From Squalus acanthias (taxonomy: Eukaryota), in assembly GCA_030390025.1 (NCBI GenBank), contig CM059432.1, forward strand, positions 26,724,001-26,788,000: DNA of 64,000 nt, in the 5' to 3' direction. This document shows, piece by piece, positions 3,085 through 45,991 of this stretch. The translations under genes were made by a program, and so were the position numbers. The notes under the pieces were generated by a model, which was given only the letters and a program-made list of their open reading frames with translations, made no database searches and was not told where the DNA came from. The first letter of the stretch is position 1. Every line of letters starts with the position of its first letter.

Positions 3085-3425
3085 GGGCAGAATTTTGATA
3101 CTGGGGCGGGCTGGGGTCGTGTCATCCACTTTTCGTGTTATCCACCCGACTGCAATTGGATGTGGGAGATTGATGCGATTTTCACCTAATTGGGCATTTG
3201 AGTTCCAGCATGTGGGAACCCATGATCCAATTAGTGTTTTCAGTCTGAAAAGTGCCTCTGATGATGTCATCATTGCTGCTGCATTGAAGGTCTGCAAAGA
3301 CTACCTGGCCTTTGCTGTGAGATGACCTGGAAGCAAAATGAGCAGCAGCAGCCTAAGTCTGGTCCCAGATATTTGTGTACAACCACCACCACTCCCAGAT
3401 ATATTATTTCCTCCTCCTCCTCCTC

Positions 3426-3501
<76 letters not shown>

Positions 3502-3851
3502 ATCATCTCCGTTGTAATAGTGGACCTGCAGCTGATAGTCAGCTATCGAAATGTGCTTCCACCAGGTTTCACATTCGTGGTTCAGAACAGGCGTGCTTCA
3601 CGTAGAAAAAGGGTTAAAATCACAAAGGCCTTTCAAAATGGCATTATAGAGGCAATTTAGTGCTTGTTAAGGCCTTAACAGCCTATCCCGCCTCTTAGAG
3701 GCGGGACGGAGTCGGGACCAGCAGACACGATTTAATGAAAATTGCGTGGAGGCGTGATGGAGGCGGGCCTGTGCCCACCCGCCAGTTTTCGCAATTTTAA
3801 CCCCCCACACGCCTCCAAACCCACCTCCATGGGTCAATTAAAATTCTGCCC
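3085..3851. mobile_element. Non-autonomous Harbinger-type MITE
   Basis: Perfect 12-bp terminal inverted repeats GGGCAGAATTTT (3085) and AAAATTCTGCCC (ends 3851); GC-rich subterminal regions; no coding capacity. Confidence 0.7.
3409..3501. repeat. (TCC)6(TAC)25 microsatellite
   Basis: Read directly from the sequence; it explains the poly-Tyr and poly-Leu ORFs. Confidence 0.97.
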
Positions 3852-4439
3852 CATGTCTACAATCTAAGGGGGTTTGTTTATCTCTGTTGACTATCACTAC
3901 CCCCTGCAGTCACAACAGTGTCTCCTGCCTTATCAGTGAAAGACTGCTTGATACATTTACCAACTTTATTTCGCTTTGAAAAACCTTTTTGCCTGGCAAA
4001 GCATTTCAAGAAATGTTAAAAATTAAGGGTCTGTATATACTTTCTACAGTAGTTGACATAAAGTGTAGAGCTGGTGGTGAGAAATAGTTACAGTTAAGAG
4101 TGTCGCAAATTATTGGATCCTTTTTTTGAATTTTGTTCTGGAAAGTTTGACCACATAGCCTTCAGTGTTCATTTCTATAGATCATTGCAACTTTGTGAAC
4201 TTGGTTGATTGCGTGAGAGTGTTACTTCTGTATTATGGCGGCATGGTGCAGAAACCTTTGGGAATGCAGGTCTTTGTGAGGCAGTTGTGTATAGTGGTAG
4301 TAACAGACGTTGGGGGGAGAATTTTATTCGATTTCTCAACTTTAGTTTAGTGAACACATTAGCTACAAATTTCTGTTCCTTTACCTGTCTGTAGGCTGAT
4401 GACTCTCTTGCTCCCAACTCTTTTCGCTCCTGTCCACCA

Positions 4440-7018: not shown

Positions 7019-8607
7019 GGGGCAGAATTTGCGATCGGTATGACGGCGCACGCTCAGAGTACGCTGTCATACCACCTTTGAAATGGATAGCTTGCGCATA
7101 TGCTGAATCCCAAACTTGCGATCTCTCAATTTCCGACGTGACTGATCACCCACTCCGAAACTGAAATGCTAATTGCTGACGCAGAGTTAGGCTAATTGCC
7201 CTGCAATTACGTATGAAAATTTTACAGCTGGTGCAGACAGGTGCAGCGCCTGTTTGCACAGTGTAAGGGGATAGATACCTCCTGACAAATGCAAGTATAT
7301 ATTCTACAAGCCAGTCTTTCAAACTGGCATCAACTACCATCAGATGTTCTGAGTGAGGCTGCTATCTTTGAGATTCTGAGGCCAGAAATGGAAGTATTTA
7401 CATATGATCCACAGGCTTATTACAGTTATATTTATTGTCCATGAAGAGTAAAGAACTGTCATCCAATATGTTTTTGAAGAAAGTATTATTCTCAGGTTCC
7501 TAAAATGTTTTTCTGGGAGGAAAAAAATTAAAATGTAGATGACATACAAAATAACAATGCATTCTGCACTCATGCAAACCACAAATCACAAATTTGAGTA
7601 TATTTTTGAAGTACTGAAGTTTAAATGGTGAATAGCCCTACGATCTCTAACAGTATTAATGAGAGACTGTGGGCTAGAATTTGCGTAGCGGCCCGCGCGA
7701 ACTTTTGAAAAGTAGAAAAAGTAGCGCCAGGCGCTAATGATTCTCTACTGCCGGGAAATTCAGCTTTAGCGCTCCAAGAGGGAAGTGGCGCGCTAAATCA
7801 AGCACTAACCACTTCTCTTATGACACTAAAGTCCGAGAGCGGGGTGGTAGCGGCAGAGCGCTGAACAATTTAGAGTGCATTGCTAACGGCATCAGAGGTT
7901 GCTTTCCTCGTTTAAAGGGAAGGGTCAATGATGGTGCACAACCTCTTTGTCGGCAGTTCTGCGTTGCAAGGTGACCTGCGTGACTGTCATTACAGCCCCA
8001 AACTCTCTCACAAAGTGGAGGGCTTGGACATCTTGCAGCAATGAAACATCAAAAACTTTGAGCAGGCACCAGGCTGGTGCAAATAATAAAGGTTGGCCTA
8101 CCTGAAAACCATTCCCTTTAATTAGCGCTCTCCAAGCGGCCAGCCAAATTGACAACGCCTCCTCTTCCTGCCATTGTTCAGGGGGCGGGAAGCAATTTCA
8201 CATCCGGGGCGATAACGGGGCGCTGCACACTTTATGACGTCACGCTCTGTGAGGCGCTAGAGGCCCAGGCGGTAAGAGTTACCGGCACTGAAGTTCACGG
8301 GCGTCGCTGCATTCGCCGCGCCTGGTCGCTAACCCCTTAACGCCCCGTTAGCACCCCCCACCCCAGGTGCTAACGGGAGGCGCTAACCAACCGAATTTCT
8401 CCCCCCTTCTGTTTGCTGATTGGAGCACCAGCCCATGTGATTCCCAGGTACGCTTACGCTGAGATCCGTGAGCCACTACGCTGCCCTCTACTCCACAGGG
8501 TCTGACAGCAACTTCTCAGAGTTGAGTTCCGAGCAGGTAAGTGCGCATTCGGTTTGGATGCTGGAGGCGTAATCCTTAGTTACGCTGCCGACCGCAAAAT
8601 CTGGGCC
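7019..8607. mobile_element. Harbinger-type MITE (outer)
   Basis: Imperfect TIRs GGGGCAGAATTTGCGATCGG and CCGACCGCAAAATCTGGGCC (16/20 complementary). Confidence 0.55.
7671..8404. mobile_element. Harbinger-family MITE nested in the outer MITE
   Basis: Right end GCTAACGGGAGGCGCTAACCAACCGAATTTCTCCCC matches the right end of the autonomous element (28026-28061); TAGCGCC/GGCGCTA motifs. Confidence 0.75.
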
Positions 8608-18689: not shown

Positions 18690-19049
18690 TGAATGTGCTG
18701 GTGCTCAGAGGGCGTGTTTGGAGGCAGGTCAGAGGTTGAAGTCGTTATGATTGACGGCGGGTTACGAACCCGTCATCATCCCGCCTCCACACAACCTTCC
18801 CGAGTGTCGGGTCCCCGATTTGCAAACGACCCAACACCAAGCGGCGGGAAAGTGATTAAAGGCAATTTTGCAGATCAGGCACCAGTGAACGTTCACTGAT
18901 GTCACGATCAGCCTGGCGTTGAAGTCCCCAGTGGTACCTTGTATCGGCGGCACAAGGGGGGGACCGGATTTGCTGTGCGTCGCTGGATTCGCCTCGCCCC
19001 GGTACTACTGGCGCTAACGGGAGGTGCTATCCAACTGAATTTTCCCCCC
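18690..19049. mobile_element. Harbinger-family MITE fragments
   Basis: GGCGCTAACGGGAGGTGCTATCCAACTGAATTTTCCCCC at ~19010-19049 matches the Harbinger right end; GC-rich upstream sequence. Confidence 0.55.
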
Positions 19050-19199: not shown

Positions 19200-21590
19200 A
19201 CCTGTGTTTTACATTTTCTCCGCCGCTTTGATCTATGGTGATCTCCAACTTGCGTCAATTTTGCCATCATATTTCTGCACCGCCATCGACTCTCATTCCT
19301 ACAACAACAACCTCCAACCACGAACTCTCTACCCTTCAAATAGCTTCTGGACTTCACTCGCCTATTTGGACAGCGGTTCGTCGATGCTCCGTGCCGGCTC
19401 CATCCTGCTTACATCAGCTTTGTCCTTCCATAGGACCTCTGACTATGACCCTGGTCTCCCTACTATTGTCTCCAACCTATCCCCTGCTACCAGGAAGTAA
19501 CTATCCCATTAATTATTACATAATCAGGCCTATGTAACCTGAGCTTTTACCCTGTGTCCATTCGCGTGCGCACTTTGGCTGATGCTCCGGACCCAAGCCA
19601 TTCAGTTCTCTTTCCACTTCTTTCTCCCCCTTTTCCTTTTCTCTCTATCCCTCCCTGACCACGCTCTCCTGTTGTCATGCCTTCTTTCATCTCTCCTCTC
19701 TCGGACACTCTGCCCTCCCAAACCCCTACTCCAATCCTTCATTACTCTTCGACCTTCCTACTCTCCTGCTGCTGTTCCAGGCTTGCCTCCTGCTTAGATA
19801 AGCCTACAGCTTCCCTCTCTGCCTCTCTTGGCATCCGACGAAGGGCCCATCGAGGCACTCGTCGCTGCCTCCTTGCGAGTAGCAACCCCAACTGTCCCAT
19901 CCTACTCTCTCACCGACCGTCCCGCCCAGCGCGCCCACTGGAGGCTAATCTTGCCAATGTCCCTGTCCAACTCACCCCTCCCAGTGTTGACCCTGTGGAC
20001 GCTGGCAGTGGGTCAGCCATCACCGACCCTGGTCTGCCTCTCCCTCCAGAATGTCCGTTCACTTGCGAACATGGCCCTGGCCATCCATGAGCTTATCATG
20101 GATGATTGCATTGACATCATGGCCCTGACGGAAACGTGGCTGAGGGGTGATGACACCTTACCCTTAACTGAAGCCTCCCTGCCTGGCTATACCTTCCACC
20201 ACTTGCCCCGCTCAGACCGCCGTGGTGGCGGTGTGGCCCTCATCACCAAATCATAACTTGGTCTGTCCCCCTACTCCTCCGCCACTTTCTTCTCCTTTGA
20301 GCATCTCTCCTTATTCCACCCCTCTTACCTCTCATTTAAAATTCTCATTCTCTACCACCCACCCAAGTACCATAAAAATTTTATTGCTGAGATATCTTCT
20401 CTGCTCTCCTCCCTCAGCCTCTGCACCGAGCGACTTCTCATCCTCGGTGATTTCAACCTCGATCTCAATTCATCATGCTCTCTCTCCTCTGAGTTCACTA
20501 CCTTCCTATCCTCCCTTCATCTCTTCCTCCATGTAAACTCCCCAACCCGGGTTCACGGCCACCCCCTTGACCTTGCCATCTCTCAAGGCCTCGCTAATCC
20601 CATCATGTTAATCGCAGATAAGGCCATCTCTGACCACTTCCTCAGATCGCTCTCCACCCACATCCCCCCTTGCCGCCCCCCCGACACCCCTGCACTCCCC
20701 CAACCCTACCTCCTTCTGTGTCCACCCCTGGAAAAAACTCTCTCCCAACTCTCTTACAACTGCACTTACAAAATCCCAACTGTCCAGTCTTTGGCCCTCC
20801 ATTCACCGTGACATTTCTGCAGCTACCGATCTGCTCAACCACATCCTCACCACCACCTTTGATGCCCTAGTCCCTTTTAAAACAATTGCTCTCTCTCACC
20901 CTGGCCATTCCTCCTGGTAGGGCCCTCATCTTTGCTCCCTTAGAGTCATAACGGCACAGAAGGAGGCCGTTCGGCCCATCAAGTCTGTGCCGGCTCTCTG
21001 TAGAGCAATCCAGTCAGTCCCATTACCCAGCTCTATCCCCATAGCCCTGCAAGTTTATTTCCCTCAAGTGCCTAAACTGACCGGCCTGTCTACTCCATCC
21101 TCACCTCTGACAAATGTTTGGAGCTCATGGACTTCTTTGTCTCTAAGATTGAGACCATCTGTTCAACTGCCTCTGCCATTTCCCTTCCTTCTCCTAGCCC
21201 ACTGGGCCAAACTTCCTCTAAGGTCCCCCCGCCCTAGCTCTCAACTCACATCTTTCTCCAGTTTCTCTCCGATCTCCCCTCATGACCTCTCCGTGCTCAT
21301 CTTGTCCATGACACCCACTTCCTGCTCCCTCGACCCTAATCCCACCAAAATGCTGACCACCTAACTTCCCTTTCTGGCTCCCATGTTAGCTGACATTGTT
21401 AATGGTTCTCTCTCCTCAGGTACTGTCCCCTTCTCCCTCAAATCTGCCGTCATCACCCCATCCTCAAAAAACAAACCCTTGACCCCTCCGTTCTTGCAAA
21501 CTACCACCCCCTCTCCACCCTCCCTTCCCTCTCCAAAGTCCTTCAACGGGTTGTCACCTCCCAAATCTGTGCCCATCTTTCCCACAACTC
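19200..21590 (+). mobile_element. L2-clade LINE fragment (EN and RT N-terminus)
   Basis: C/T-rich strand; LQNVRSL…LTETWL…RRGGGVAL, ILGDFN and ISDHF motifs; TSCSLDP…IVNGSLSSGTVP…SAVITP; degenerate. 5' boundary uncertain. Confidence 0.8.
20941..21073 (-). mobile_element. Short CR1 3'-end insertion within the L2
   Basis: Roughly 90% similar by eye to 22302-22434 (CR1-A 3' end), including the AGAGTCATA tail. Confidence 0.8.
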
Positions 21591-21606
21591 TATATATACT
21601 CTACTG

Positions 21607-22300
21607 TTAGCGCCCCGAAAAAATTAGCACCCCCACGCCCGAAATTCACTGGTAGCGCCCCAAGAGGGAGGCGGGGTGCCCTCTTGGGGCACTGCGAGTG
21701 AATATCACAGCGCTATGTGCCCCAGCGCCATGCGCTATGGCACGTCGCGCTGCGGTACTGCAGGCCTTCCTCCCCTAAATAAAGGGGAGGGGCATTGCGC
21801 AGCGCAACCCGGGGCCCAGCTGGGCCACCAGGGATCGGAGTGCCGGCAAAAGAGCCCGGCACTCAAGAGAAGTGCCAGGCTCACGGAGAGCAGCCAGTAC
21901 CACACAGGGGGGCTGCACAGGAGGCCGGGGACGGCAACGAGGGCAGGTGCTGGCAGGCGGCCAACAACAAAAATGGCCGCCCAGCACCTCACCTTTACCT
22001 TGCGCCGCCCCGGCCACAGGTAGGCCCCCCTGTCACTATCGGACATCGCGTCGGGCGGTAAGTCAGGGGGCGCTACCGAAGATCGCGGCCGAGGCGCGAG
22101 CGGGGCGCTGCACAGGGCGATGACATCATCGCCGGAGGCACAGCGCCACGGGTTGCTAATGGTTACCGCCTCTGCTAACCTCCCGCTGAATTTCGCGGGA
22201 GGTGTTGGCGGCGCCGCGCCCATGTGCTACTTGCTTTGCGCCTCGTTAGTGCCCTCTTAGGGTGCTAACAGGAGGTGCAAATCAACCGAGTTTTGCCCCC
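21607..22300. mobile_element. Harbinger-family MITE lacking its left TIR
   Basis: Right end TTAGTGCCCTCTTAGGGTGCTAACAGGAGGTGCAAATCAACCGAGTTTTGCCCCC is homologous to 28008-28061; repeated TAGCGCC motifs. Confidence 0.7.
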
Positions 22301-22948
22301 ACAGAGTCATAATGGCACAAAAGGAGGCCATTTGGCCCATCGAGTCCGTGCCGACTCCCTGTAGAGCTATTCAGTCAGTCCCATTCCCCCGCTCTATCCC
22401 CGTAGCCCTGCAAGTTTATTTCCCTCAAGTGCCTATCCAGTTTAATCTTGAAAACATGGAGTGTCTCCGCTTCCACCACTTCCGTCGGCAGCGAATTCCA
22501 GGTCACCACCACTCGCTGCTTAAAAAAGTTTTTCTCACATCCCCCTGTATCTCTTGCCCAAACCCTTAAATCTGTGGCCCCCAGTCCTTGTACCATCAAC
22601 TAGTGGGAACAGCCTTTCCCCGTCTAGTCTATCCAAACCCGTCATAATCTTGTACACCTCTATCATATCACCCTTCAACCTCCTTTGCTCTAATGAAAAC
22701 AAATCCAGCTTTTGCAACCTGTCCTAGTAGCTAAGATCCCCCATCCCCGGAACCATTCTGGTAAATCTCCTCTGCAGCTTCTCAAGTGTGGTGACCAGAA
22801 CTGGATACAATACTCTAGTTGTGGCCTAACCAGCGCTTTATAAAGGTTCAGCATAACTTCTCTATTTTTGTACTCAATACCTCTATTTATGAAGCCCAAG
22901 ATCCCATATGCTTTGTTAACCACACTCTCAATATGTCCTAGAGTCATA

Positions 22949-23841
22949 GGGGTAGAAATTAGGTCGCGCCCCATTTGGGGCGCAAATATCGTCTGGACGC
23001 AAATATTAGCGCCTGGCGCTAATTATCGGCACTAACTGGAAACTTCACTTTTACCGCCCCGGGAGGTGAGTGGAGCGCTAAAACAGGCGCTGCACACCTG
23101 TCTTAAGGCGCAAAGGCCAAGGAGTGAGGTGCTAACTCAGAGCGCTGGCGAAGCTCATGTAATGTCAGTCAGCAATGGAACACACACACAATGGCAAAGG
23201 CCAGTTCTTAAAGGGGATGGTTAATCTTGCTTTCCATCCACATCCTGTTCATTGCAGCCTTGAATCTCGGCCTGGAGAGACTTGCACATCAAATGTGCTG
23301 GAAAGAACAATGGAGAGTACCAGGCAAAGAGCTCAGAGTGCAGCTCCCACAGTCTCTGCTAAATCGATACAAGGAATGGCAAATCAAAATGAACCTGCAA
23401 AGTGCTGCTCAGTACCCAAAACTCCTTCACACAACGTTGAATCTCTCCAGAAGTCTCTCCCTCTCGCTCTCAGAATGCGTAGTTCAAAAATGCCACCAAC
23501 AATAAAAGACAGGAAGAGGCCCCCTTTAAATAGCGCCACCCCCAGCCCCACAGCGATTGATAGCGTTCCAGTCTTCTGGTCATTGGATGCGCCAGGCGGT
23601 AAGGCAGGGGGCGCCACTCAATTTCCGCTCCGGGGCGCCACAAGGGCGTTGCACCATGGAATGACATCACAATCTGCGCGCGCAGGTGGTCGCAGCGGTA
23701 AAGTTTAGCGCCGCCGCACAATCTCTAGTTAAGTTCCCGAGCGGCGCAAACATCGCTGCACCCGGGCGTTAGCGGCTTTGCGCCCCATTAGCGCCCTCTT
23801 AAGGCGCTAACGGGAGGCGCAACCAACTGAATTTTTACCCC
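22949..23841. mobile_element. Non-autonomous Harbinger deletion derivative (H1, 893 bp)
   Basis: TIRs GGGGTAGAAATT and AATTTTTACCCC; flanks ATA/ACA; the left ~190 bp and right ~340 bp are nearly identical to the ends of H2. Confidence 0.93.
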
Positions 23842-24211
23842 ACAGAGTCATAGGGGGAAAAATTAGGTCGCGCCCCATTTGGGGCGCAAATATCGTCTGG
23901 ACGCAAATATTAGCGCCTGGCGCTAATTATCGGCACTGACTGGAAACTTCACTTTTACCACCCCGGGAGGTGAGTGGAGCGCTAAATCAGGCGCTGCACA
24001 CCTGTCTTAAGGCGCAAAGGCCGAGCAGTGAGGCGCTAACTCAGCGCGCGAGCGCAGCGCAGCTGCTGCCAGTTAGCGAGGGAACACAGACACACTGGCG
24101 CCGGCCACTTCTTAAAGCGGGGGGGGCCAACTTGCTCCCCAGCCACACCCTGCTCATTTCAGCCTTGAATCTCGGCCTGGATAGACCTGTGAATCCATTT
24201 TGCTGCCAAGG

Positions 24212-26072
24212 ATGGAGAGGGTGAGAGAACGAGCTCATCGCTTCACCGAGCGGGCCTTGGATGCTCTGGTTGGCGCGGTGGAGCGCAGAAGATGTATACT
24301 CTTCCCTGAGAGTGGCAGGTGGCCTTTGCCACGCGAGTTCAGAAGAGTGTGGAGGGAGGTGGCTCAGAGCGTCTCCTCCAGGAGCATGGTGCCCAGGACC
24401 CATACTCAATGCCGCAAAAAGTTCAACGACCTCACTCGGGTCGTCAGGGTGAGTGGCTTTTTCTCAATACCTCTCCATCCCTCCATCTCAACCTCACTCT
24501 TAAAACCCCAATGCACAACACTCATCCAACACCTATGGCCCTTTCATGAAACACACACACACATTCCACACTTTGCATACAGTAAGGGCTATTCACCTAT
24601 GGGAGGCACATCAGGCAAGACCATGGCTGCATACAGTAAGGGCTATTCACCTATGGGAGGCACATCAGGCAAGACCATGGCTGCATACAGTAAGGGCTAT
24701 TCACCTATGGGAGGCACATCAGGCAAGACCATGGCTGTATATTTACTCAGATGCTGTCCTTTTTCTTACAGGCCAAGCTGGCGCATAATCGGAGACAGCA
24801 GCAACGGACAGGTGGAGGGCGGCCTCAGCTGCAACCCCTCAGCGATCTTGAGGAGCGCGTCCACAGGATTGTGGCAAGCCGGGTGATCGGTCCCGTCGCC
24901 ACTGGAGACGCCGACCCCGTTCTGGACAGCAATGGTAAGGTCATCACCTTTTTGTCCTCTGTCCTTCCACTTGTCCCTCACAACACCAGCCTTTGACACT
25001 TTCAATCCAACTTGCTAACTCGCTGCACTTATTCCTCCCTTACTGCCACCCTGTCCTCACGCTAAAGCCACTCTTGTACCTCCCTGCTTTCAGATGGTGA
25101 TTCACCAGCTGAGGAGACGGGCCCTGAAGCTGCCACTGGGAGTGATGCTGCAGCTGAGGAGGAAGAGGAAGCCAGAGCATCAGTGCCACCCTCTCCCGAG
25201 GAAGCCCATGCCCACACTGGGAACACGCCTTCCTCGGAGGGGAGCAGGGGGGAAGGGGCTGATGATGGTGAAGCTCCAGGACCCAGCGGGCTGCAGCAAC
25301 GCCATGGGGGGGTAGGGAAGAACGGGGGCCTTCTCCCCAGAGGGAGAGTATGCCAGACACTCCTACTGCAATGGACGCAGAGGAGGAGCGGCTGATCGCA
25401 GAAATGAACACCCAGGCGGTGGGCATGCACACTGAGCTCATGGGTGCAGTGGGAAGGGTGCCCGAATGCATTGAGTCACTGGCAAGGAGTGTGGAGCACT
25501 TCGCTGTAGCACAGGCGGATGCCACACTAACGCTTAGTGCTGCAATTCAGTCACTGGCTGCCGTGATCCCATCTCTGACTGCTCTCATGCAGACTCAGAT
25601 TGAGGCCACGCGAGCACAGACTGCTGCCAACCTCGATGGTTCGTTCACATGTCCCTGGGGCTGTCACCGCGCCGCAGCAGGCCAGCAATCTGTTCTCCAG
25701 CAGATTGCTCCGGATGCTGAAGTGCTGCCCCGTGGGAGTGCCAGTGTGTCGGGCGAGCAGGGAGTTGCTGTCCTCTCTCACGATGACAGCATTCCTGCTG
25801 CCAACACTGTCACTTCTCCACTGCACTTGCCACCGCCTGTAGGACAGACTGCTGCCGCCCATGCAGAGTTGGTGCAGTCTGCAGCCGGGCCCTCCAGGCC
25901 CAGAAGTGGTCGAGGCCGTCCTTCAGGGGCATCTGAAGTGTCAGGGTCTGACGAGCAGCAGCCTTCCACCAGCCTTGCTGCAGCCACTGAGGTCCCATTA
26001 CGGAGGAGCAGTAGGGTTAGAAGGGGGGAAGTGCGCAATGGAAGGAGATCACCCTCGAAGGGCAAAAAGTAG
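24212..26072 (+). CDS. Harbinger Myb/SANT-like (MSANTD-type) DNA-binding protein, three exons; apparent 1-bp frameshift in exon 3
   Basis: Kozak context CCAAGGATGG. Exon 1 24212-24448 (RFT…LV…VWREVA…RTHTQCRKKFNDL), donor GTGAGT. Exon 2 24772-24934 after TTTTCTTACAG (AKLAHNRRQQQRTGGG), donor GTAAGG. Exon 3 from 25094 after CTTTCAG. The frame stops at 25395 unless the G7 run at 25306-25312 is G8, which joins ORF 25350-26072. Confidence 0.82.
24574..24737. repeat. Three identical 54-bp tandem repeats in intron 1
   Basis: Unit TGCATACAGTAAGGGCTATTCACCTATGGGAGGCACATCAGGCAAGACCATGGC starts at 24574, 24628 and 24682. Confidence 0.95.
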
Positions 26073-26384
26073 GAGGTGTGACAAAATGCTGGTCATTTTT
26101 TTATTAAAGGTCGAGGTTCATGGTCCAACTTTTGTTTAGTGTTTTGGACATTATCTCCAGGTTGTGAGAACCAGTTATGTTATTGACTGTTTTTTTGTGT
26201 TTATTTCTATGAGTTTGTCATGAGGAATTGACACACACAGAGTTTGTAAAATAAATAAGTTTCTGTATTCAAAATATACATGGTTGGTGGTTGGAATTAT
26301 TGGTGCCTTGGCCGGCTTAGGGGTTGCGTGCTGGGTTCATTAATGTTGTTAGCAATGGCAGAAGCCATTTCCACAGCAGGGGCC

Positions 26385-27545
26385 CTAGAAGCGGCTTGCT
26401 ATTAGCCGTTGACGGACGGCCCTTGCAGTTTCACCATTGTGGGCCGCCCTCCCGCCTTGGTGCTGCTGATGATCATCCTCCTCGTCCTCTTCCTCCTCTT
26501 CCTCCTCCTCCTCTGGTGGTGCTCCAAGGCCTGGTGGCATTGGCTGGGTCCTGAGGATTGCCATGTTATGCAACATGCAGCACACGACTACGAAGTTCGA
26601 TACTCGCTCAGGCGAGTACTGCAGGGCTCCTCCAGAATGGTCGAGACAGCGGAACCGTTGCTTCAGCACGCCGATTGTGCGCTCAATTATGTTCCTGGTA
26701 GCTTGATGGCTCTCATTGTACCGCAGCTCAGCAGGGGTGTTGGGCGTACGGAGCGGTGTCATCAGCCAGGTGCTCAATGCATACCCCTTGTCACCGAGAA
26801 GCCAACCAACTGGCTGATGCGGTGCCTCGAAAAGTTCTGCCACAGTAGTCTGGCGCAGGATAAAAGCATCGTGGCAGCTGCCAGGATAGTGGGCATTGAC
26901 AGCGAGTATCAGCTGTCTGTGGTCACAGACCAACTGAACATTCAAGGAATGGAACCCCTTTCTGTTCCGGAATTCCTCGGCATTCTCATGCGGAGCACGC
27001 AAAGCCACATGCGTGCAGTCAATGGCGCCCTGCACCATGGGGAAGCCCGCTACCCTCGCAAAGCCCAGAGCGTGGTCACGCTGCTTGTCTGGTGTCATGG
27101 GGAAAGAGATGAACTCTCGTCTCCTTTTAAAGAGGGCATTTGTGACCTGCCGGATGCAGCAATGCACCGCGAACTGGGGGATATTGGCGAGGTCCCCAGC
27201 AGCAGCTTGAAATGAGCCAGTAGCATAAAAGTTGAGAGCCACTGTGACCTTCACTGCCACCGACAGAGACGTCCTGGACCTCAGTTGAGGCTGCAGATTT
27301 GGCTGCAGCAGGTGGCAGAGCTCAGTGACCACCTCCTTGCTGAATCGCAGCCTTCGCAAACACAGCTCCTCAGACATATGAATGTAGGAGAGCTGTTCAC
27401 GATATACCCTGGGAGGGTAAGCGCTCCTGTACATACGCCTGTTAGCCCTCCTCCGTCTGACCATCATTGCCACTCTCTCTCTGCGTCTCTGTATCCTCCG
27501 ATTCAGCTGGAGCAGGACGACGCCCCCAATCAGTGCAGCCCCCAT
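26385..27545 (-). CDS. PIF/Harbinger DDE transposase (HARBI1-like, DDE_Tnp_4), 386 aa, intact
   Basis: GAIDCTH, NRKGFHSLNVQLVCD, PGSCHD, LLGDKGY, IERTIGVLKQRFRCL and CCMLHN motifs; acidic tail; probable start is the ATG at 27545 (MGAALIGG). Confidence 0.95.
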   Translation of the reverse strand: MGAALIGGVVLLQLNRRIQRRRERVAMMVRRRRANRRMYRSAYPPRVYREQLSYIHMSEELCLRRLRFSKEVVTELCHLLQPNLQPQLRSRTSLSVAVKVTVALNFYATGSFQAAAGDLANIPQFAVHCCIRQVTNALFKRRREFISFPMTPDKQRDHALGFARVAGFPMVQGAIDCTHVALRAPHENAEEFRNRKGFHSLNVQLVCDHRQLILAVNAHYPGSCHDAFILRQTTVAELFEAPHQPVGWLLGDKGYALSTWLMTPLRTPNTPAELRYNESHQATRNIIERTIGVLKQRFRCLDHSGGALQYSPERVSNFVVVCCMLHNMAILRTQPMPPGLGAPPEEEEEEEEEDEEDDHQQHQGGRAAHNGETARAVRQRLIASRF

Positions 27546-27743
27546 AGTCTCTTTGCAAGCAAAGTAATGAAGGACAGCAACTAAAGTACTAGCGAAGTTA
27601 GGATCAATAGGCAAAACTACCTCACAAAGCGTTGAGTCAATGCAGAAGTCTCTCTTTCTCTCTCTCCGAATCTCTCTCTCTCTCTCTCTCAGAACGAGTG
27701 CTGCAAAAATGTCGACCACAGAAAAAGACAGGAAGAGGCCCCC

Positions 27744-27751
27744 TTTAAATA
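27744..27751 (-). promoter_or_regulatory. TATA-like box of the transposase promoter
   Basis: TATTTAAA(GGGG) on the minus strand ~200 bp upstream of the ATG, inside a GC-rich subterminal region; conserved in H1 (~23525). Confidence 0.5.
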
Positions 27752-29183
27752 GCGCCCCCCCCCAGCCCCACAGCGATTGATAGCGTTCCAGTCTTCCGGT
27801 CGTTGGATGCGCCAGGCAGTAAGGCAGGGGGCGCCACTCAATTTCCACTCCGGGGCGCCACAAGGGCGTTGCACCATGGAATGACGTCACAATCTGCGCG
27901 CGCAGGTGGTCGCAGCGGTAAGTTTTAGCGCCGCCGCACAATCTCTAGTTAAGTTCCCGAGCGGCGCAAACATCGCTGCGCCCGGGCGTTAACGGCTTTG
28001 CGCCCCATTAGCGCCCTCTTAAGGCGCTAACGGGAGGCGCAACCAACTGAATTTTTACCCCATAGAGTTATACAGCACAGAAAGAGGCCCTTCGGCCCAT
28101 CGTGTCCGCACCGGCCATCAAGCCCTGTCTATTCTAATCCCATTTTCCAGCACTTGGTCCGTAGCCTTGTATGCTATGACGTTTCAAGTGCTCATCTAAA
28201 TGCTTCTTGAATGTTGTGAGGGTCCCTGCATCTGCCACCTTTTCAGGCAGTGAGTTCCAGATTCCAACCACCCTCTGGGTGAAAAAGTTTTTCCTCAAAT
28301 CCCCTCTAAACCTCACGTCCCTTATCTTGAAACTATGCCCCCTGGTTATTGATCCCTCTACTAAGGGGAAAAGTTCCTTTCTATCTACCCTATCTATGCC
28401 CCTCATAATTTTGTACACCTCAATCAGGTCCCCTCTCAGCCTTCTCTGCTCTAAGGAAAACAACCCCAGCCTGTCCAGTCTCTCTTCATAGCTGAAGCGC
28501 TTCAGCCCAGTTAACATCCTGGTGAATCTCCTCTGCACTCTCTCCAATGCAATCACATCCTTCCTATAGTGTGGCGACCAGAACTGCACACAGTATTCCA
28601 GCTGTGGCCTAACTAGCGTTTTGTACAGCTCCATCATAACCTCCCTGCTCTTATATTCTATGCCTCGGCTAATGAAGGCAAGTATCCCATATGCCTTTTT
28701 AACCACCTTATGTACATGTCCTGTTGCCTTCAGGGATCTATGTACATGCACACCAAGGTCCCTCTGATCCTCTGTCCTTCCTAGGGTCCTACCATTCATT
28801 GTGTATTCCATTGCCTTGTTAGTCCTCCCAAAATGCATCACCTCATACTTTTCTGGGTTAAATTCCATTTGCCACTGTTCTGCCCATCTGACCAACCCAT
28901 CGATATCGTCCTGTAGCCTGAGGCTTCCCTCCTCGCTATTTACCACCCCACCAATTTTCGTGTCATCTGCAAACTTACTGATCATATCTCCTACATGCAT
29001 ATCTAAATCATTAATGTACACTACAAACAGCAAAGGACCCAGCACCAATCCCTGCGGTACACCACTGGACACAGGCTTCCAGTCACAAAAACAACCTTCG
29101 ACCATCACCCTCTGCCTCCTGCCACTAAGCCAATTTTGGATCCAATGTGCCAAGTTGCCCTGGATCCCATGGGCTCTTACCTT

Positions 29184-30875
29184 TGTAAGGTTTCCAAAAT
29201 TTGCAGATCCCCAAAACCTAAGGAAAAAGGACTTTGGAACTACCTCAGAGTGATAATATTGCATTTGGGCCTAACCTAAGAGACTGTAAGACCAAAAACC
29301 AAGTTTTGGCATTTTAAAACTATGTCTGGGCCTGTAAAGTGAGAAAAGGCTGCGAAAGACGGTGGGCTCAATCTCTGCAAAAGCAGTTTTGGTTATTGCA
29401 GTTAATTGCACTGTCTGGGGAACCGGGATGACCCTACTCAAGCCCCAGCAAGCATTAACATTTTGACAATAGACCCTAGGAGAAGACAGTCCCACCCAAA
29501 ACAACAGGTCCCATCAAACCGATTACAGGGCCCATCAGAAAACATGCATAATACAAATCACTCAGGACCAGTCTATAGAAAAGACTGAGTCCAGCCTAGA
29601 AACCCAAAACACGAAACCAATCACCAGTGATCAGCCAAGGAGATCGACAGGATGCAAACCATCCCAAAACCCATTTGACACAAACAGAGCAATTACTGGT
29701 AACAGGCCCGCCAAAATTCAGACAATGAACTGAGTAGATTTGGCAGGTAGATAAGGCCATGTTCAATGGGTGAGATTGAAGGCCTGTTAAAAACACAGTT
29801 AACGTGCTAGTAAGTCATTACCGATTTACGAGCCCGCCAAAAAACAAACAATGAACTGAGTAGATTTGGCGGGTAGATAAGGCCACTTCAATTTTGTATA
29901 ATTGAAGGCCCACCAAGCACACACGGCAAGTCCAAAGTTGAGAATCGAGCAGTCAGTCGCAACCGGTTGTCATCAGAAGAAGAAGAGACCAAGAAGAAGA
30001 AGACCCGAGCTGGAAGCGAGTCGGCATCGCTCACCACTCAGACACACCTGAGTCCAGCTCGCGAAGATACCACCTCGACAGACCTTCAACAACGGCCCCA
30101 ACACAGTCACCCGGAGCAACAAGCAGCAACAAGTCACCGACAGCTCCACGAGGTCGACCGACACACTAAACAAGGCCTAAAGCCATCGCGGAAACCAAAG
30201 GCCTCACGAAACCAACAACCGCGCATTACCCCCAACTGACTGGGTAATAGCAGGCCACCACGACCAACAAAGATCAACTCAAGGTGAGAAAACCCGAAGA
30301 ACCGCGAAGTTTCCACACTACAAACTAATCCTGACTTACCCCTGGGTAAGATTTTCCCCAAAGACTCTAAATCCTATTGCTAAACTAAAGAAATTGGGTA
30401 CTCACCAGATAAATCCAAAACGACATCCTACCGCATCAGCGGACTCGCGAAGACTGACCAGAGACCCAGGTGAAGTCCTCTACCACATACGGGGTACGGC
30501 AGACACTAACCGCCATAAACAGCGAACCCCAAAACCGCGATTTAGCCCAACTGTCAAAGGATTGGTGAGCATTATCCCTGGTCCTTCAAAACCTAACTTA
30601 GCTAGTAAAGTGGGGTTGGGAGGGGTGAAGTATTGTTCTACTGTCATTTCCCTCGCTTGTACAGCATTGTTCCCCACCTTTAGAGTGAGAAGAGTGTTAT
30701 TATTTGTGTCTTACCTTTTAATAAAGACTGAAGTTCTTTCATCAAACCCAGTTGTCTGCTGCACCTTTGTATCACAACCCCCAAATAAGTCCAAGGTCCA
30801 GAACCAAGGGAGTGGGAGCGATTCGAGCCACTCAGAAGTCAGCAGTAAAGCTGACACAAACCACCACCCCCTACA
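29184..30875 (+). mobile_element. Solo LTR (1692 bp) of a Gypsy-like or ERV1-like element
   Basis: TGTAAGG…CCCTACA termini; 4-bp TSD CCTT (29180-29183 and 30876-30879); AATAAA at 30720-30725; removing it restores CR1 frame GRLVKKVRAHGIQ. Confidence 0.88.
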
Positions 30876-33800
30876 CCTTCTTGACCAGTCTCCCATGCGG
30901 GACTTTGTCAAAAGCCTTACTGAAGTCCATGTAGACCACATCAACTGCACTACCCTCATCCACACACCTGGTCACCCCCTCGAAAAATTCAATCAAATTG
31001 GTCAGACATGATCTCCCCCTGACAAAGCCATGCTGACTATTCTTGATTAATCCTTGCCTCTCCAAGTGGAGACTAATTCTGTCCCTCAGAATTTTTTCCA
31101 ATAATTTCCCTACCACTGATGTTAGGCTCACTGGCCTGTAATTCCCTGATTTATCCCGACTACCCTTCTTGAATAATGCACTACGTTAGCTGTTCTCCAG
31201 TCCTCTGGCACCTCCCCTGTGGCCAGAGAGGTTCTGAAAATTTGTGTCAGAGCCCCTGCAATCTCCTCCCTTGCCTCACACAGCAGCCTGGGATACATCT
31301 CATCTGGGCCTGGGGATTTATCCACTTTTAAGCCCGCTAAAACCGCTAGTACCTCCTCCCTCTCAATACTAATTTGTTCAAATATATCACAATCCCCCTG
31401 CCTGATTTCTATGCCTACATCGTCCTTCCCCAGAGTGAACATAGATGCAAAATATCCATTTAAAACCCCACCTACATCTTCTGCCTTGACACACAGATTG
31501 CCACTTTGGTCCCTAATGGGCCCTACTCTTTCCCTGGTTATCCTCTTGCCCTTAATATACTTATAAAACACCTTGGGATTTTCCTTTATTTTGCCCGCCA
31601 GTGTTATTTCATGCCCCCTCTTCGCTCTCCTAATTTCTTTTTTAAGTACCCGCCCCCTGCACTTTCTATAATCCTCTAGGGCTTCCATTGTTTTTAGTCC
31701 TTTGTATCTGCCAAAAGACTCCCTTTTTTTCCTAATCCATTCTCATATATCCCTTGACACCCAGGGTTCCCTGGGCTTGTTGGTCCCACCCTTGACCTTT
31801 ACGGGAACATGTTGCCGTTGTACTCTCTCTATTTCCTTTCTGAAAGACTCCCACTGCTCTGATGTGGATTTTCCTACAAGTAGCTGATCCCAGTCCATTT
31901 TGGCCAGATCCTGCCTTATCATGTTAAAATCGGCCTTAGAACCTTTATTTCCGGTCCATCTTTGTCCTTTTCCATGACTACATTAAATCTCACCGAATTA
32001 TGGTCACTGTCACCAAAATGCTCTCCTACTAACACTTCTACCACTTGCCCGGCTACATTCACTAGAATTAGGTCCAGTACCACCCCCTCTCTTGTAGAAC
32101 TTTCTACATGCTGGCTCAAAAAGCTCTCCTGGATGCAATTTAAGAATTCCGTACCCTCGAAGCCTTTCACACTCTGACTATCCCAGTTAATATTGGGGAA
32201 GTTGAAATCCCCTACTATTATTACCCTATTATTTCCACACTTCTCTGAGATTTGCCTACCTGCCACCTTCAGGGACCTATGCACGTTAACTCCCAGGTTC
32301 CTCTGTCCCTGCACACTCTTTAAAACTGTGCCATTAAGTGTATATTGCATCTCCCTGTTCCTTCTGCCAAAATGCATCACCTCACACTTCTCTGTATTAA
32401 ATTCCATCTGCCACTTGTCTGCCCATTCTGCTAGCCTTTCTATGTCCTGTTGCAGTCGATTGGTATCATCATCACTGTTTGCCACGCCCCCAAGTTTGGT
32501 GTCATCGGCAAATTTAGAAATTCTACTCTGTATTCCAATATCCAGGTCATTTATATATATCAAAAAAAGCAGTGGCCCCAGCACTGACCCTTGGGGAACA
32601 CCACTGTCTACCATCCTCCAGTCTGAAAAGCAGCCATTTACCACAACTCACTGTTTACTGTCCTTAAGCCAATTCCTGATCCAAGCTGCCACTGACTCAC
32701 CTATTCCCTGAGCCTCAATTTTGTTAACCAGCCTTCAATGTGGTACTTTGTCAGATGCTTTTCGAAAATCCATGTAGAAAACATCCATTGAATTCCTTTC
32801 ATCAATCCTCTCTGTTACTTCATCAAAAAATTCAATTAGATTAGTCAAACACGATCTGCCTTTTACAAATCCGTGTTGGCTCTCCTTAATTAGCTTAAAC
32901 CACTCCAAATGTGCGTTAATTTTTTCCTTGATTATTGTTTCTAAAACATGACCCACCACTGATGTTAAACTGACCGGCCTGTAGTTACTAGAATTGTCCT
33001 TACACCCTTTCTTGAACAATGGTGTCACATTTGCCACTTTCCAATCCTCAGGCACTTGCCCCTCATCGAGGGAAGATTGGAAATTTATGGCAAGCACTTC
33101 CGCTATCTCCTCCCCCAATTCCCTTAGCAACCTGGGATGCAAGCCATCTGGACCAGGTGACTTGTCCACTCTAAGCATACCCAGCCTTTCTAGTACATCC
33201 TGTCTATCAATTTTCACCCCTTCCATTGCTTCTACATTTTCCACTTCTACCGATATTTTGTCAGCATTCACCTCCTCAGTAAACACCGATACAACGTACT
33301 CACTGAGTATTCTAGCCTTGCCCTGTGCCTCTAAGTATATATCACCTTCTTTGTCCCTAATAGGCCCCACTCCGCCTGTTACTACCCACTAACTGATAAC
33401 ATTCCGGGAGAAGATTTTTGGGTTCATTTTATGTTAACCGCCATTCTACTCTCATATTCTCTCTTTGCCAATCTTATTTTCAACTTCACATCACTTCTCA
33501 ACTTAACAGTTAAAGAGATCATTGACAGCCACAGATAAATAGAACATTGACAGGCACAGTTAATTAGAACATTGACAGGCACAATTAAATAGAACATTGA
33601 CAGGCACAGTTAAATAGATCATTGACAGGCACAGTTAAATAGAATATTGACAGACACAGTTAAATAGAACATTGACAGACACAGTTAAATAAATCACTGA
33701 TAGGCACAGTTATATAGAACATTGACAGACACAGTTAAATAGAACATTGACAGACACAGCTAAATAAAACATTGACAGACACAATTAAAAAGAATATTGA

Positions 33801-34345
33801 CAGGCACAGTTAAATAGAATATTGACAGGCACAGTTAAATAGAACATTGACGGTCACAGTTAAATTGATCATGAAGAGGCTCAGTTAAATGAATCATTGA
33901 TAGGCACAGTTAAATAGATCATTGACAGGCTCAGTTAAATAGAACATTGACAAACACAGTTAAATAGATCATTGACAGGCACAGTTCAACAGAATATTAA
34001 CAGTCACCATTAAATAGAACATTGAAAGACGCAGTTAAACAGAACATTGACAGACACAGTTAAATAGAACATTGACAGACACAGCTAAATAGAACATTGA
34101 CAGACACAATTAAAAAGAATATTGACAGGCACAGTTAAATAGAATATTGACAGGCACAGTTAAATAGAACAATGACAGACACAGTTAAATAGAACATTGA
34201 CAGACACAGTTAAATAGAACATTGACAGGCACTGTTAAATAGAATATGGACAGGCACAGTTAAATAGAATATTGACAGGCACAGTTAAGTAAAACATTGA
34301 CAGACACAGTTAAACAGAACATTGACAGACACAGTTAAATAGAAC

Positions 34346-35608
34346 GGGATTGGGGGTAATATTCTGGCATGGATAGAGGATTGGCTATCTAACAGAAAGC
34401 AAAGAGTTGGGATAAATGGTTCATTCTCAGACTGGCAATCAGTAACTAGTGGTGTTCCACAGGGGTCAGTGCTGGGTCCCCAACTCTTCACAATCTATAT
34501 TAACGATTTGGAGGAAGGGACCAAGTGTAACATATCAAAATTTGCAGATGATACAAAGATGGGAGGGAAAGTAGTGAGTGAGGAGGACATAAAAAACCTG
34601 CAAGGGGACATAGACAGGCTAAGTAAGTGGGCAGAGATTTGGCAGATGGAATACAACACTGGAAAGTGTGAGGTGATGCACTTTGGCAGGAAAAATCCTA
34701 GAGCAATTTATTATCTTAATGGCAAGAAACTGGAGAGTACTGAAGTGCAAAGGGATCTGGGGGTCCTGGTGCACGAAACTCAAAAGGTTAGTATGCAGGT
34801 GCAGCAAGTGATTAAGAAGGCAAATGGAATGTTGGCTTTCATTGCTAGGGGGATAGAATATAAAAATAGGGAGGTATTGCTTCAGTTGTACAAGGTATTG
34901 GTGAGACCGCACCTGGAATACTGCATACAGTTTTGGTGTCCTTACTTAAGGAAAGACATCCTTGCTCTCGAGGCAGTGCAAAAAAGGTTCACTCGGTTAA
35001 TCCCGGGGATGAGGGGGTGGTCATATGAGGAGAGGTTGGGTAGATTGGGACTCTACTCATTGGAGTTCAGAAGAATGAGAGGCGATCTTATTGAAACATA
35101 TAAGATTGTGAAGGGGTTGGATCGGGTGGATGCGGGGAGGATGTTCCCGATGACGGGTGAGACGAGAACTAGGGGACATAGTCTTAGAATAAGGGGCTGC
35201 TCTTTCAAAACTGAGATGAGGAGGAACTACTTCACTCAGAGGGTGGTAGGTCCATGGAATATGCTGCCACAAAAAGCTGTAGAAGCTACAACATTAATTA
35301 AATTTAAAACAGAAATAGACAGTTTCCTAGAAGTAAAGGGCATTAAGGGTTACGGGGAGCGGGCAGGAATTTGGACATGAGTCTAGGTTCGGATCGGTCA
35401 TGGCCCTGTGGGTAGTGGAGCGGGCCCAGGGACTGTGTAGCCTGATTCTGCTCATATTTCGTGTGTGCAATTCTGTTAGATGCAGGAGATGGTTCTGTGA
35501 TAGATAGTAGATTGGCGGTTAGGATCAGATCAGCCATGATCTTATTGAATGGCGGAGCAGGCTCGAGGGGCCGATTGGCCTACTCCTGCTCCTATTTCTT
35601 ATGTTCTT
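34346..35608 (+). mobile_element. 5'-truncated CR1 inserted in the satellite
   Basis: Uninterrupted RT C-terminal ORF to 35380 (FADDTK, LVRPHLEYC); 3'UTR and (TTCTTATG) tail. Confidence 0.95.
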
Positions 35609-44009: not shown

Positions 44010-45677
44010 GTGTCCAAGACTGTCACTGACCTCATCTCCTCTGGAGATCTTCCCCCCACGGCCGCCAACCTCATAGTTCCCCAACCCCGCACAGCCCGCT
44101 TCTACCTCCTTCCCAAGATCCACAAACAGGACTGCCCCGGTAGACCCATCGTTTCAGCCTGTTCTTGCCCCACGGAACTTATCTCTTCCTATCTCGACTC
44201 TATTTTTTCTCCCCTTGTCCAGTCTCTTCCCACCTACATCCGCGACTCTTCCGATGCCCTCCGCCATTTTAACAGTTTCCAGTTTCCCGGCCCCAACCGT
44301 CTCCTCTTCACTATGGACGTACAATCCCTCTACACCTCCATTCCCCACCAGGATGGCCTGAGGGCGCTCCGCTTCTTCCTTGAACAGAGGCCCAACCAGT
44401 CCCCATCCACCACCACCCTCCTCCGCCTGGCTGAACTTGTTCTCACATTGAACAACTTCTCCTTTGACTCTACCCATTTCCTCCAAATTAAAGGTGTTGC
44501 TATGGGTACCCGCATGGGTCCTAGCTATGCCTGCCTTTTCGTGGGATATGTGGAACACTCTTTGTTCCAGTCCTACTCGGGTCCCCTCCCTCACCTCTTT
44601 TTCCGGTACATTGATGACTGTATCGGTGCCGTCTCCTGCTCTCGCCCTGAACTAGAACATTTCATTCACTATGCTTCCAATTTCCACCCTTCCCTCACCT
44701 TCACATGGTCCATCTCCGACTCTTCTCTTCCCTTCCTCGACTTCTCCATCTCCATCTCTGGGGATAGGTTATTGACTAACATTCACTACAAGCCCACCGA
44801 CTCCCACAGCTACCTGGACTACACTTCCTCCCACCCCGCCTCCTGTAAGGACTCTATTCCATTCTCCCAGTTTCTCCGTCTCCGCCGCATCTGCTCTGAT
44901 GATGCCACCTTCCATACCAGTGCTTCCGACATGTCTTCCTTTTTCCTCAACCGAGGATTCCCCTCTACCGTGGTCGACACGGCCCTCGACCGTGTCCGTT
45001 CTATCTCCCGCACATCTGCCCTCACCCCTGCCCCTCCCTCCCGGAACCACGATAGGGTTCCCCTTGTCCTCACCTTTCACCCCACCAGCCTCCACATTCA
45101 ACGGATCATCCTCCGCCATTTCCGCCACCTCCAGCGTGATCCCACCACCAAACACATCTTCCCCTCACCTCCCCTTTCAGCATTCCGCAGGGACCGCTCC
45201 CTCCGCGACACCCTAGTTCACTCCTCTACCACCCCCAGCACCCCTTCCCCTTCGCCCGGCACCTTCCCGTGCACGCGCAGGAGATGCAACACATGCCCTT
45301 ATACCTCCCCTCTTCCCACTGTCCAGGGCCCCAAACACCCCTTCCAGGTGAAACAGCGATTTACTTGTACTTCCTGCAATTTAGTATACTGTATTCGCTG
45401 CTCACGATGTGGACTCCTCTACATTGGGGAGACCAAACGCAGATTGGGTGACCGCTTTGCGGAACACCTCCGTTCAGTCCGTAAGGGGGACCCCGAGCTC
45501 CCGGTGGCCTGTCACTTTAATTCACCGCTTCACTCCCACTCTGACCTCACCGTCCTCGGCCTAATACACTGTTCCACGGAAGCTCAGCGTAAGCTCGAGG
45601 AACAGCACCTCATCTTTCGTTTAGGCACGCTACAGCCCTCTGGACTCAATATCGAGTTCAACAATTTTAGATCATAA
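44010..45677 (+). CDS. PLE reverse transcriptase + GIY-YIG endonuclease (N-terminally truncated, no stops)
   Basis: YLLPKIHK, GRPIVS, MDVQSLYTSIP, QIKGVAMGTRMGPSYA and RYIDD motifs; Cys linker CTRRRCNTC; LVYCIRC..C..LYIGETKR…RFAEH; C-terminal GTLQPSGLN. Confidence 0.93.
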   Translation: MSKTVTDLISSGDLPPTAANLIVPQPRTARFYLLPKIHKQDCPGRPIVSACSCPTELISSYLDSIFSPLVQSLPTYIRDSSDALRHFNSFQFPGPNRLLFTMDVQSLYTSIPHQDGLRALRFFLEQRPNQSPSTTTLLRLAELVLTLNNFSFDSTHFLQIKGVAMGTRMGPSYACLFVGYVEHSLFQSYSGPLPHLFFRYIDDCIGAVSCSRPELEHFIHYASNFHPSLTFTWSISDSSLPFLDFSISISGDRLLTNIHYKPTDSHSYLDYTSSHPASCKDSIPFSQFLRLRRICSDDATFHTSASDMSSFFLNRGFPSTVVDTALDRVRSISRTSALTPAPPSRNHDRVPLVLTFHPTSLHIQRIILRHFRHLQRDPTTKHIFPSPPLSAFRRDRSLRDTLVHSSTTPSTPSPSPGTFPCTRRRCNTCPYTSPLPTVQGPKHPFQVKQRFTCTSCNLVYCIRCSRCGLLYIGETKRRLGDRFAEHLRSVRKGDPELPVACHFNSPLHSHSDLTVLGLIHCSTEAQRKLEEQHLIFRLGTLQPSGLNIEFNNFRS

Positions 45678-45954
45678 CCTCAGCTCCAATCACATTTATA
45701 TTTTATTTTATCCACCCTTTTATTTGTCCCCCCCACCTTTTTTTTTCCTCCTAGAAGCTGGCAGCTGTCCTTCATTCTGCCAGTAGATTTCACACTTCAT
45801 TCAGCCTTAATCTGTCACATTAACACCACCTCTAGCCTTGCATATCTCTTAATGTCTCTTAATGTCTCTTCATCTCCTCCTTTGTTCCTTTATCCCCTCC
45901 CCCTTTTCCCAGCTTTACCCTGGCCTTAAATCTATTTGATTTCCAGCTCTTCCC

Positions 45955-45991
45955 AGTTCTGATGAAAGGTCATCGACCTGAAACGTCAACT
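45955..45991 (+). ncRNA. Minimal type-I hammerhead ribozyme
   Basis: Stem I AGTT/AACT; core CTGATGA (45959-45965); stem II AGGTC-atc-GACCT; GAAA (45980-45983); palindromic ACGT in place of stem III; predicted cleavage after GTC (C45987). Confidence 0.85.

Follow-up and report, generated by a model that had tools for sequence, protein, structure and literature searches.

Harbinger transposons in the CR1 tails of Squalus acanthias: a hot spot that is probably a by-product of palindromic target choice

In a stretch of 64,000 nucleotides from the Squalus acanthias genome (contig CM059432.1, positions 26,724,001-26,788,000; genome total 3.71 Gb), hereafter the window, two DNA transposons of the PIF/Harbinger type, H1 and H2, interrupt the octamer-repeat tail of a single CR1 retrotransposon at consecutive ATA triplets, 11 base pairs (bp) apart and in identical orientation (CCT-AGAGTC-ATA[H1 22949-23841]ACA-GAGTC-ATA[H2 23853-28061]ATA-GAGTT-ATA-CAGCACAG), and a third element, H0, adjoins the tail of another CR1 copy ([H0 end 22300]ACA-GAGTC-ATA-ATGGCAC). 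These junctions read as they had been given in an initial sequence-only reading of the locus, which placed all three Harbingers at one register of the tail repeat; H1 and H2 do share that register, while H0, a sister-family element with about 55 bp missing from its left end, can only be said to adjoin a tail. The locus raises the question of (i) whether Harbingers enter CR1 tails more often than chance allows; (ii) whether such insertions are independent of each other; and (iii) whether they reflect a dedicated targeting of one transposable element by another, as the sequence-only reading proposed, or the general target preference of the family. Our answer is that the tail hot spot is probably a by-product of known Harbinger target choice, made up of independent insertions of a young two-gene family whose target is matched by one octamer variant of the tail.

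Family ends were counted by the exact 22-base right end common to H1 and H2, which occurs 8,317 times in the genome. The tail 11-mer stands directly after this end in 726 cases (8.7%), 462 in the orientation seen in the window and 264 in the other; the patterns used for occupied sites permit slightly more variants than the strict 11-mer, which has 120,336 genomic copies (reversed control: 7,334). Against the 0.0032% expected from uniform insertion, the enrichment is about 2,700-fold. When unselected ends (the first 90 of 100 listed) were judged by a looser octamer rule, 13 lay in tails (14%; Wilson interval 9-23%). Nineteen of these 90 insertions used an ATA or TAT triplet, and 12 of the 19 were in tails; as tail 11-mers make up 0.11% of such triplets, this corresponds to an enrichment of about 600-fold. 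The comparison of flanks with random ATA sites that the sequence-only reading had called for thus bears out the enrichment; the fixed register is real too, and we confirmed that the tail hot spot is real, strong and well beyond chance. The tail target was also described as very abundant, which does not hold for the preferred two-unit tail site, of which the genome holds 9,759 empty copies.

Position within the tail is fixed: the TAT/ATA triplet is used, and tail units are present on both sides in 28 of 30 loci in which both element ends are visible (selected by right flank). The family does not, however, place most or all of its copies at one position of one multicopy target, as roughly 86-91% of copies lie outside tails. 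Nor do two sister families, for which 10,616 and 3,535 ends were counted: a strict tail context was found by eye in 13 and 4, respectively, of the first 100 listed ends of each (16 and about 10 when tail variants are allowed), and their lists contain the same recurrent non-tail sites. Ends of any element of this repeat type directly behind the 11-mer number 2,875.

The target preference was derived from insertions outside tails. We sampled 150 ends, consisting of the 90 unselected ends and 60 of 71 further rows, the latter conditioned on C or G at flank position 17; five tail rows already in the sample, two near-duplicates and the last four rows were left out of the 71. Because of this conditioning and these exclusions, the proportion of tail sites in the sample (19 of 150) understates their share. 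Once the 19 tail sites and four duplicates with identical flanks had been dropped, 127 non-tail sites (200 half-sites) remained to train a position-specific matrix. They define a palindromic target, ARASWC-(TWA-like)-GWSTYT, which reads outward as G-W-S-T-Y-T followed by a weak W-A and has an A/T-rich centre (+1 G 0.64; +2 T 0.56, A 0.27; +3 G 0.48, C 0.28; +4 T 0.88; +5 T 0.48, C 0.34; +6 T 0.68). Each of the six positions on either side carries 0.3-1.2 bits of information; the extended preference supposed by the sequence-only reading is therefore present, and the flanks carry far more than a 3-bp preference. Central triplets of the 127 sites are most often TAA/TTA (39), AAA/TTT (22), CAA/TTG (15) and ATA/TAT (13), with only 3 cases of CAG/CTG. 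The leave-one-out median score, determined for 56 non-tail sites, is 8.4 bits.

Compared with a background of 398,844 positions, drawn from forty 10-kb stretches spaced evenly, (GACTCTAT)n at the TAT register scores 11.2 bits (bootstrap 10.0-12.3), which is percentile 99.9987, or the top ~0.001%. The other seven registers score -2.5 to -24.4 bits. The repeat agrees with 11 of the 12 target flank positions at one register of eight only. Dropping the 16 recurrent hot-spot sites from the matrix leaves the tail score at 11.25 bits. The matrix also ranks the tail variants in the order observed: GACTC-type tails score 11.2 bits, GATTC-type tails (GATTCTAT) 7.2, TTCTATGT 3.9 and TTCTTATG at most 1.5. 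Counted by eye, 91 of the first 100 occupied 11-mers are of the G type versus 49 of the first 100 overall, odds of 10.5 where 16 was predicted. Four CR1 tails of other octamer types in the window (0.2-1.5 bits) and a single-unit tail at 20940 (4.0 bits) are empty. Tails of other octamer types are no rarer than GACTCTAT tails in the 646 kb surveyed, part of which lies near selected loci, yet they hold only one of the 150 sampled ends; the element therefore follows the sequence and not the tail of a long interspersed element (LINE) as such. Palindromic target preference largely accounts for the use of tails.

Tails are not the only recurrent target. A single site close to where the CR1 coding region begins received eight of the 150 sampled ends (L007, L032, L047, L048, L054, L067, L072, L075), one site in a repeat resembling a short interspersed element (SINE-like) received five (L030, L031, L077, L080, L087), and another CR1 site three, the CR1 and SINE-like labels of these sites resting on a reading of the flanks. 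The coding-region site is nearly as hot per site as the tail dimer: 114 copies are occupied in one orientation versus 6,190 empty (1.8%), as compared to about 356 versus 9,759 for the dimer, for which we estimate 2.6-3.6%.

Several observations weigh against target preference as the whole explanation. The matrix predicts that 0.45% of insertions (bootstrap 0.13-1.0%) should fall at the 11-mers that are empty today, twenty-fold under the 8.7% observed, in part because the best sites are no longer empty. Per two-unit tail site the prediction is 0.30% versus 2.6-3.6%, a 9-12-fold shortfall, and a sharper exponent on the matrix (fitted 1.07) leaves this gap open. The prediction for the CR1 coding-region site, 0.19%, is about 10-fold too low as well, so that the shortfall is not special to tails, but that site was picked for being recurrent and hence is no neutral control. 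If all families are summed, an estimated 30% or so of the perfect extended sites in tails hold an element, a rough figure (2,875 x 0.83 occupied versus 9,759 x 17/30 empty). Elements are also stacked. Among loci chosen for looking like doubles or long copies, one tail holds four elements in mixed orientation (L284, C1:103041900-103045400), another at least two with further ends nearby (L282, a stack of three), and L283, L288 and L290 are stacks of mixed families; an identical 11-bp spacer separates neighbouring elements at L283, L284, L285, L287, L288 and L290. Finally, in sixty tail loci the next site was filled in nine clusters and perfect but empty in five. At least six of the nine filled neighbours are at perfect or near-perfect sites. 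Set against the ~30% baseline, the filled and empty counts give a binomial p of 0.008-0.08, and we consider the excess of filled neighbours suggestive only. Possible sources of the tenfold excess over the matrix are interdependence of target positions, preferential survival of insertions that lie in repeats, and recruitment.

A bolder reading adds a second layer of targeting to the sequence match: the transposition complex would be drawn to GACTCTAT tails or to a resident element, so that about one in three perfect sites is occupied and a single tail can stack as many as four elements from different families. We consider this rather unlikely; if true, it would describe a DNA transposon heading toward specificity for LINE tails, and nested transposon arrays would have a natural nucleus there.

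A rival along the lines of the sequence-only reading is that evolution or selection led the family to treat CR1 tails as a place where insertion does no harm, by means of some additional recognition of the tail or of the 3' end of CR1. Both measures of enrichment, the 9-12-fold excess that the matrix leaves unexplained and the use of tails by three families, with 2,875 ends behind the 11-mer, would fit such a safe haven. However, with 8.7-14% of insertions in tails, the great bulk lie elsewhere; tails of other octamer types are nearly unused; the CR1 coding-region site is about as hot; and a matrix trained outside tails already picks the register. No tail-specialised sub-lineage was found in a tree of 98 full-length copies, and no tail-specialised sister family among the first 100 listed ends of each. 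Moreover, zebrafish Harbinger3_DR has a matching flank consensus, so the one found here need not have been shaped by the CR1 tail. A dedicated system of this kind is improbable.

It could also be that a sequence match starts the hot spot and that a resident element or local chromatin then attracts further insertions, building stacks. The stacks of mixed family and orientation at 11-bp spacing, in the window and at L283, L284, L288 and L290, point in this direction, as does the filling of neighbouring sites, although the latter comes from a small sample with a rough baseline. Tails that were present through all bursts of transposition would be fuller anyway, yet in small samples we found no age difference between occupied and empty tails (94.7 versus 95.1% identity, p 0.35; 91.3 versus 93.1%, p 0.24). 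The two elements at L285, of one family and 99.0% identical, may be a tandem duplication. Taken together, further attraction of this kind seems distinctly improbable.

A further possibility is that a CR1 already carrying a Harbinger in its tail was copied as a unit, by retrotransposition or duplication, from a few founding events. A few near-duplicate loci exist (four of 150, removed for their identical flanks), but the sixty loci chosen by their tail flank show both orientations (genome-wide, 462 and 264 ends), several types of CR1 3' end and the use of different units, and the elements concerned come from three families. In 30 of these sixty loci the element can be seen at both its ends, and tail units flank the element on both sides in 11 of 13 loci of orientation A and 17 of 17 of orientation B, which means that the Harbinger split a tail that already existed. 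In the tree of 98 copies (33 tail, 65 non-tail) the tail label changes 29 times, against a mean of 28 for shuffled labels; most branches are weakly supported, as expected of such a young family. Tail copies are no more alike than non-tail copies (97.8% and 97.9% identity). The presence of both orientations and the scatter of tail copies over the tree indicate independent insertions; co-amplification of CR1 and element as a composite is largely refuted by orientations, 3'-end types and tree mixing, and we regard copying as a unit as extremely improbable. The same evidence disposes of the notion that H1 and H2 travel as one composite. Tandem duplication was ruled out for this pair by their identities of 84% over the left 387 bp and 93% over the right 400 bp, as the sequence-only reading had argued from their differences, and H1 is therefore a separate insertion.

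That CR1 inserted beside Harbinger ends afterwards is possible for H0 alone, since the CR1 tail is not taken up again on its left side, where CACAACTCTAT of an L2-like element stands, but is hardly credible in general given the tail units on both sides of nearly all two-ended loci.

The reading that we prefer, a by-product of target choice, can be put as follows. The transposition complex likely reads a symmetric target of 15-17 bp, and one octamer variant of the CR1 tail happens to match it at the TAT/ATA triplet, generating a strong hot spot. By analogy with the PIF/Harbinger literature (PMC2836001, available in part), the Myb protein would bind the element ends, the DDE transposase would cut and insert with a 3-bp duplication, and non-autonomous copies of the H1 and H0 type would be mobilised in trans. 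A periodic tail should offer one more good site per unit, and a good site in every unit would lead to 11-bp-spaced stacks such as H1-H2.

In each feature examined the family is, as far as can be judged from its sequence, a Harbinger: it combines a HARBI1-type DDE transposase, a separate Myb/SANT-like gene, short inverted repeats, a 3-bp duplication and an extended target. The transposase predicted in H2 has 421 relatives, the best being HARBI1-like proteins of sharks and rays with up to 66% identity; acidic residues D176, D226, D252 and E288 are common to 34, 29, 30 and 20 of 41 aligned rows, some of which are fragments. No solved structure matched it by sequence. The Myb/SANT-like gene (Myb_DNA-bind_5, E 1.1e-8) lies on the opposite strand. 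Its spliced model ends after 233 amino acids while a 266-residue frame continues at 25272-26072, and two bases at 25306 are absent from other copies, so the gene is probably frameshifted near 25300 in this copy of H2. A 54-bp unit is present in three tandem copies (99% matches) at 24574-24741, within the first predicted intron.

In the terminal inverted repeats, 11 of the first 12 bases agree between ends. Identical 3-bp target duplications flank 72 of 89 two-ended copies, and none has a 4-bp duplication; that of H2 is perfect (ATA/ATA) and that of H1 imperfect (ATA left versus ACA right). Mismatched 3-bp duplications at the remaining 17 of 89 (loci L001-L090 and L221-L280) exceed what the ~1% divergence of copies suggests; some are mutually reverse complementary (L005, L074), and in several cases (H0, H1, L126, L146, L149) the TAT next to the end repeat has become TGT.

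The retrotransposons have a reverse transcriptase open reading frame (ORF), then a 3' untranslated region (UTR), then a few octamer repeats as tail, and of 30 loci chosen because they contain the dimer, 26 have a conserved 3' end followed by GACTCTAT/AACTCTAT units. We take these elements to be CR1 from this layout rather than from a tree. Bird CR1 is described as having a tail of one to four octamer units (PMC2612034, available in part).

The features of the locus are collected in Table 1.

Table 1. Elements, genes and tail segments around the nested Harbinger insertions, in window coordinates
Feature	Position	Strand	Remarks
H0, non-autonomous Harbinger of a sister family; ~55 bp of left end missing, right end adjoins CR1 copy 1 tail	21601..22300 (approximate)	+	
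CR1 copy 1, 3' part, with single-unit tail (ACAGAGTCATA on + strand)	22301..22940, resumes near 32259	-	68% like 3' part of CR1 copy 2
Outer octamer unit of CR1 copy 2 tail, ending in H1 left target triplet ATA	22940..22948	-	reconstructed H1 site 11.2 bits
H1, 893-bp non-autonomous Harbinger (MITE, for miniature inverted-repeat transposable element); ~12-bp terminal inverted repeats GGGGTARAAATT	22949..23841	+	
11-bp spacer ACA-GAGTC-ATA: octamer unit plus duplicated triplets of H1 (altered to ACA) and H2	23842..23852	-	
H2, 4,209-bp autonomous-type Harbinger with Myb and DDE transposase	23853..28061	+	site 10.2 bits
Myb/SANT-like gene of H2	24212..26072	+	predicted exons 24212-24448, 24772-24934, from 25094
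Intact 386-residue Harbinger transposase ORF of H2	26385..27545	-	DDE_Tnp_4 E 6.4e-40
CR1 copy 2: inner tail units (ATAGAGTTATA), 3' UTR, reverse transcriptase region	28062..32258	-	RVT_1 E 3.7e-15 in 28137-29270

CR1 copy 2, with a whole span of 22940-32258 on the minus strand, is nested inside CR1 copy 1, which it breaks at 22940; the sequence that stands behind 22939 in other copies is that found at 32259. H1 belongs to the young family represented by the 98 full-length copies (mean identity 97.8-97.9%). H2 is 94-96% identical to copies of 4.2-4.3 kb at L281 and L283, both likewise in CR1 tails. H0 is 73-81% identical to complete relatives at L206, L217, L192 and L204 across ~620-720 bp, its match beginning ~55 bp inward of the L206 left end, and its resemblance to H1 and H2 (76-81%) is confined to the ends. 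Public sequencing runs over 21300-28500, in which an empty allele was sought, assembled into short contigs that mix numerous copies of the repeats, and no joint specific to this locus emerged.

Immediately left of H0, an L2-like element (19990-21600) stops at CACAACTCTAT. As this is a plausible Harbinger half-site, the two flanks of H0 may derive from different original sites. Inside the L2-like element, a 144-bp fragment of a CR1 3' end (20931-21074) carries a single empty GAGTCATA unit. CR1 copy 2 contains a 1.69-kb insertion (29184-30874) that starts with TGTAAGG, ends with CCCTACA and is flanked by the short direct repeat CCTT; by reading of its sequence it looks like a solo long terminal repeat. 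Further to the right lies a 25-bp satellite of more than 1,100 copies (85% matches), at 33506-34345 and 35609-64000. It begins directly behind a CR1 tail at 35609. Two interruptions break it, a piece of CR1 (34346-35608) and, near 44200-46100, a LINE-like insert richer in GC.

Other elements whose end repeats are of the related GGG..AATT type lie at 3085-3852, 7019-~7660, 7671-8406 and ~18900-19049, outside CR1 tails; the sequence-only reading had rightly set those starting at 3085, 7019 and 7671 apart from the tail insertions. Two of them, the element at 7671-8406 and the one ending at 19049, are remotely related to H1 and H2 (67-73% in patches), and that at 3085-3852 has no BLAST match to either.

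The comparisons below draw on published accounts available to us in part. The superfamily is characterised there by an extended target preference, which covers 9 bp in plant elements and 15 bp in those of vertebrates (PMC2836001). In target choice the family works like zebrafish Harbinger3_DR and its non-autonomous partner Harbinger3N_DR, which share the two-gene layout of Myb and DDE proteins, the non-autonomous partners, the 3-bp duplication and a 15-bp palindromic target. Their target consensus AAACACCWGGTCTTT, with flanks AAACAC and GTCTTT around a CWG centre (PMC3016246), fits 12 of the 12 flank positions of our matrix and differs in its centre, which is an A/T-rich triplet here. The available parts of those accounts (PMC3016246, PMC2836001) mention no repeat hot spot. 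Plant PIF/Pong elements and their Tourist MITEs, such as mPing, likewise use two proteins and have a 3-bp duplication, an extended preference and many non-autonomous copies; however, that preference spans 9 bp rather than the 15-17 bp found here (PMC2836001).

Hot spots within repeats are known from human nested insertions (Levy et al., PMC2836564), where most transposable elements enter their host element at hot spots. Elements of the hAT-type MER1 use the same MIR3 positions in both orientations, much as seen here, although those are other superfamilies and old elements, whereas here the periodic tail permits stacks at 11 bp. Dada (small nuclear RNA and transfer RNA genes), Pokey (28S ribosomal DNA) and CryptonV (microsatellites) are target-specific DNA transposons and also occupy a fixed position within a multicopy sequence (PMC3706591, PMC8869645). 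Dada families are described as specific to their target genes, whereas the present family has only about a tenth of its copies in tails; its transposase, its end repeats and the length of its duplication are those of a Harbinger. Like Pokey, it prefers one repeat and also uses other sites, and it is closer to Pokey than to the Dada or R2 kind. A search of titles and abstracts, with Repbase, Dfam and most subscription journals outside its scope, found no description of a Harbinger hot spot in CR1 tails.

These results extend a 15-bp target of the Harbinger3_DR type to a family whose closest proteins are in sharks and rays, with the flanks conserved and the centre changed. With more than 20,000 young insertions, the three families are a rich natural resource for working out which of the two proteins recognises the target. 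Because the stacks disrupt the 3' ends of CR1, annotating and dating repeats will suffer from them. More generally, a broad palindromic preference together with one repeat variant can yield a hot spot filled to an estimated 30%, and such a hot spot is a plausible first step toward true target specificity.

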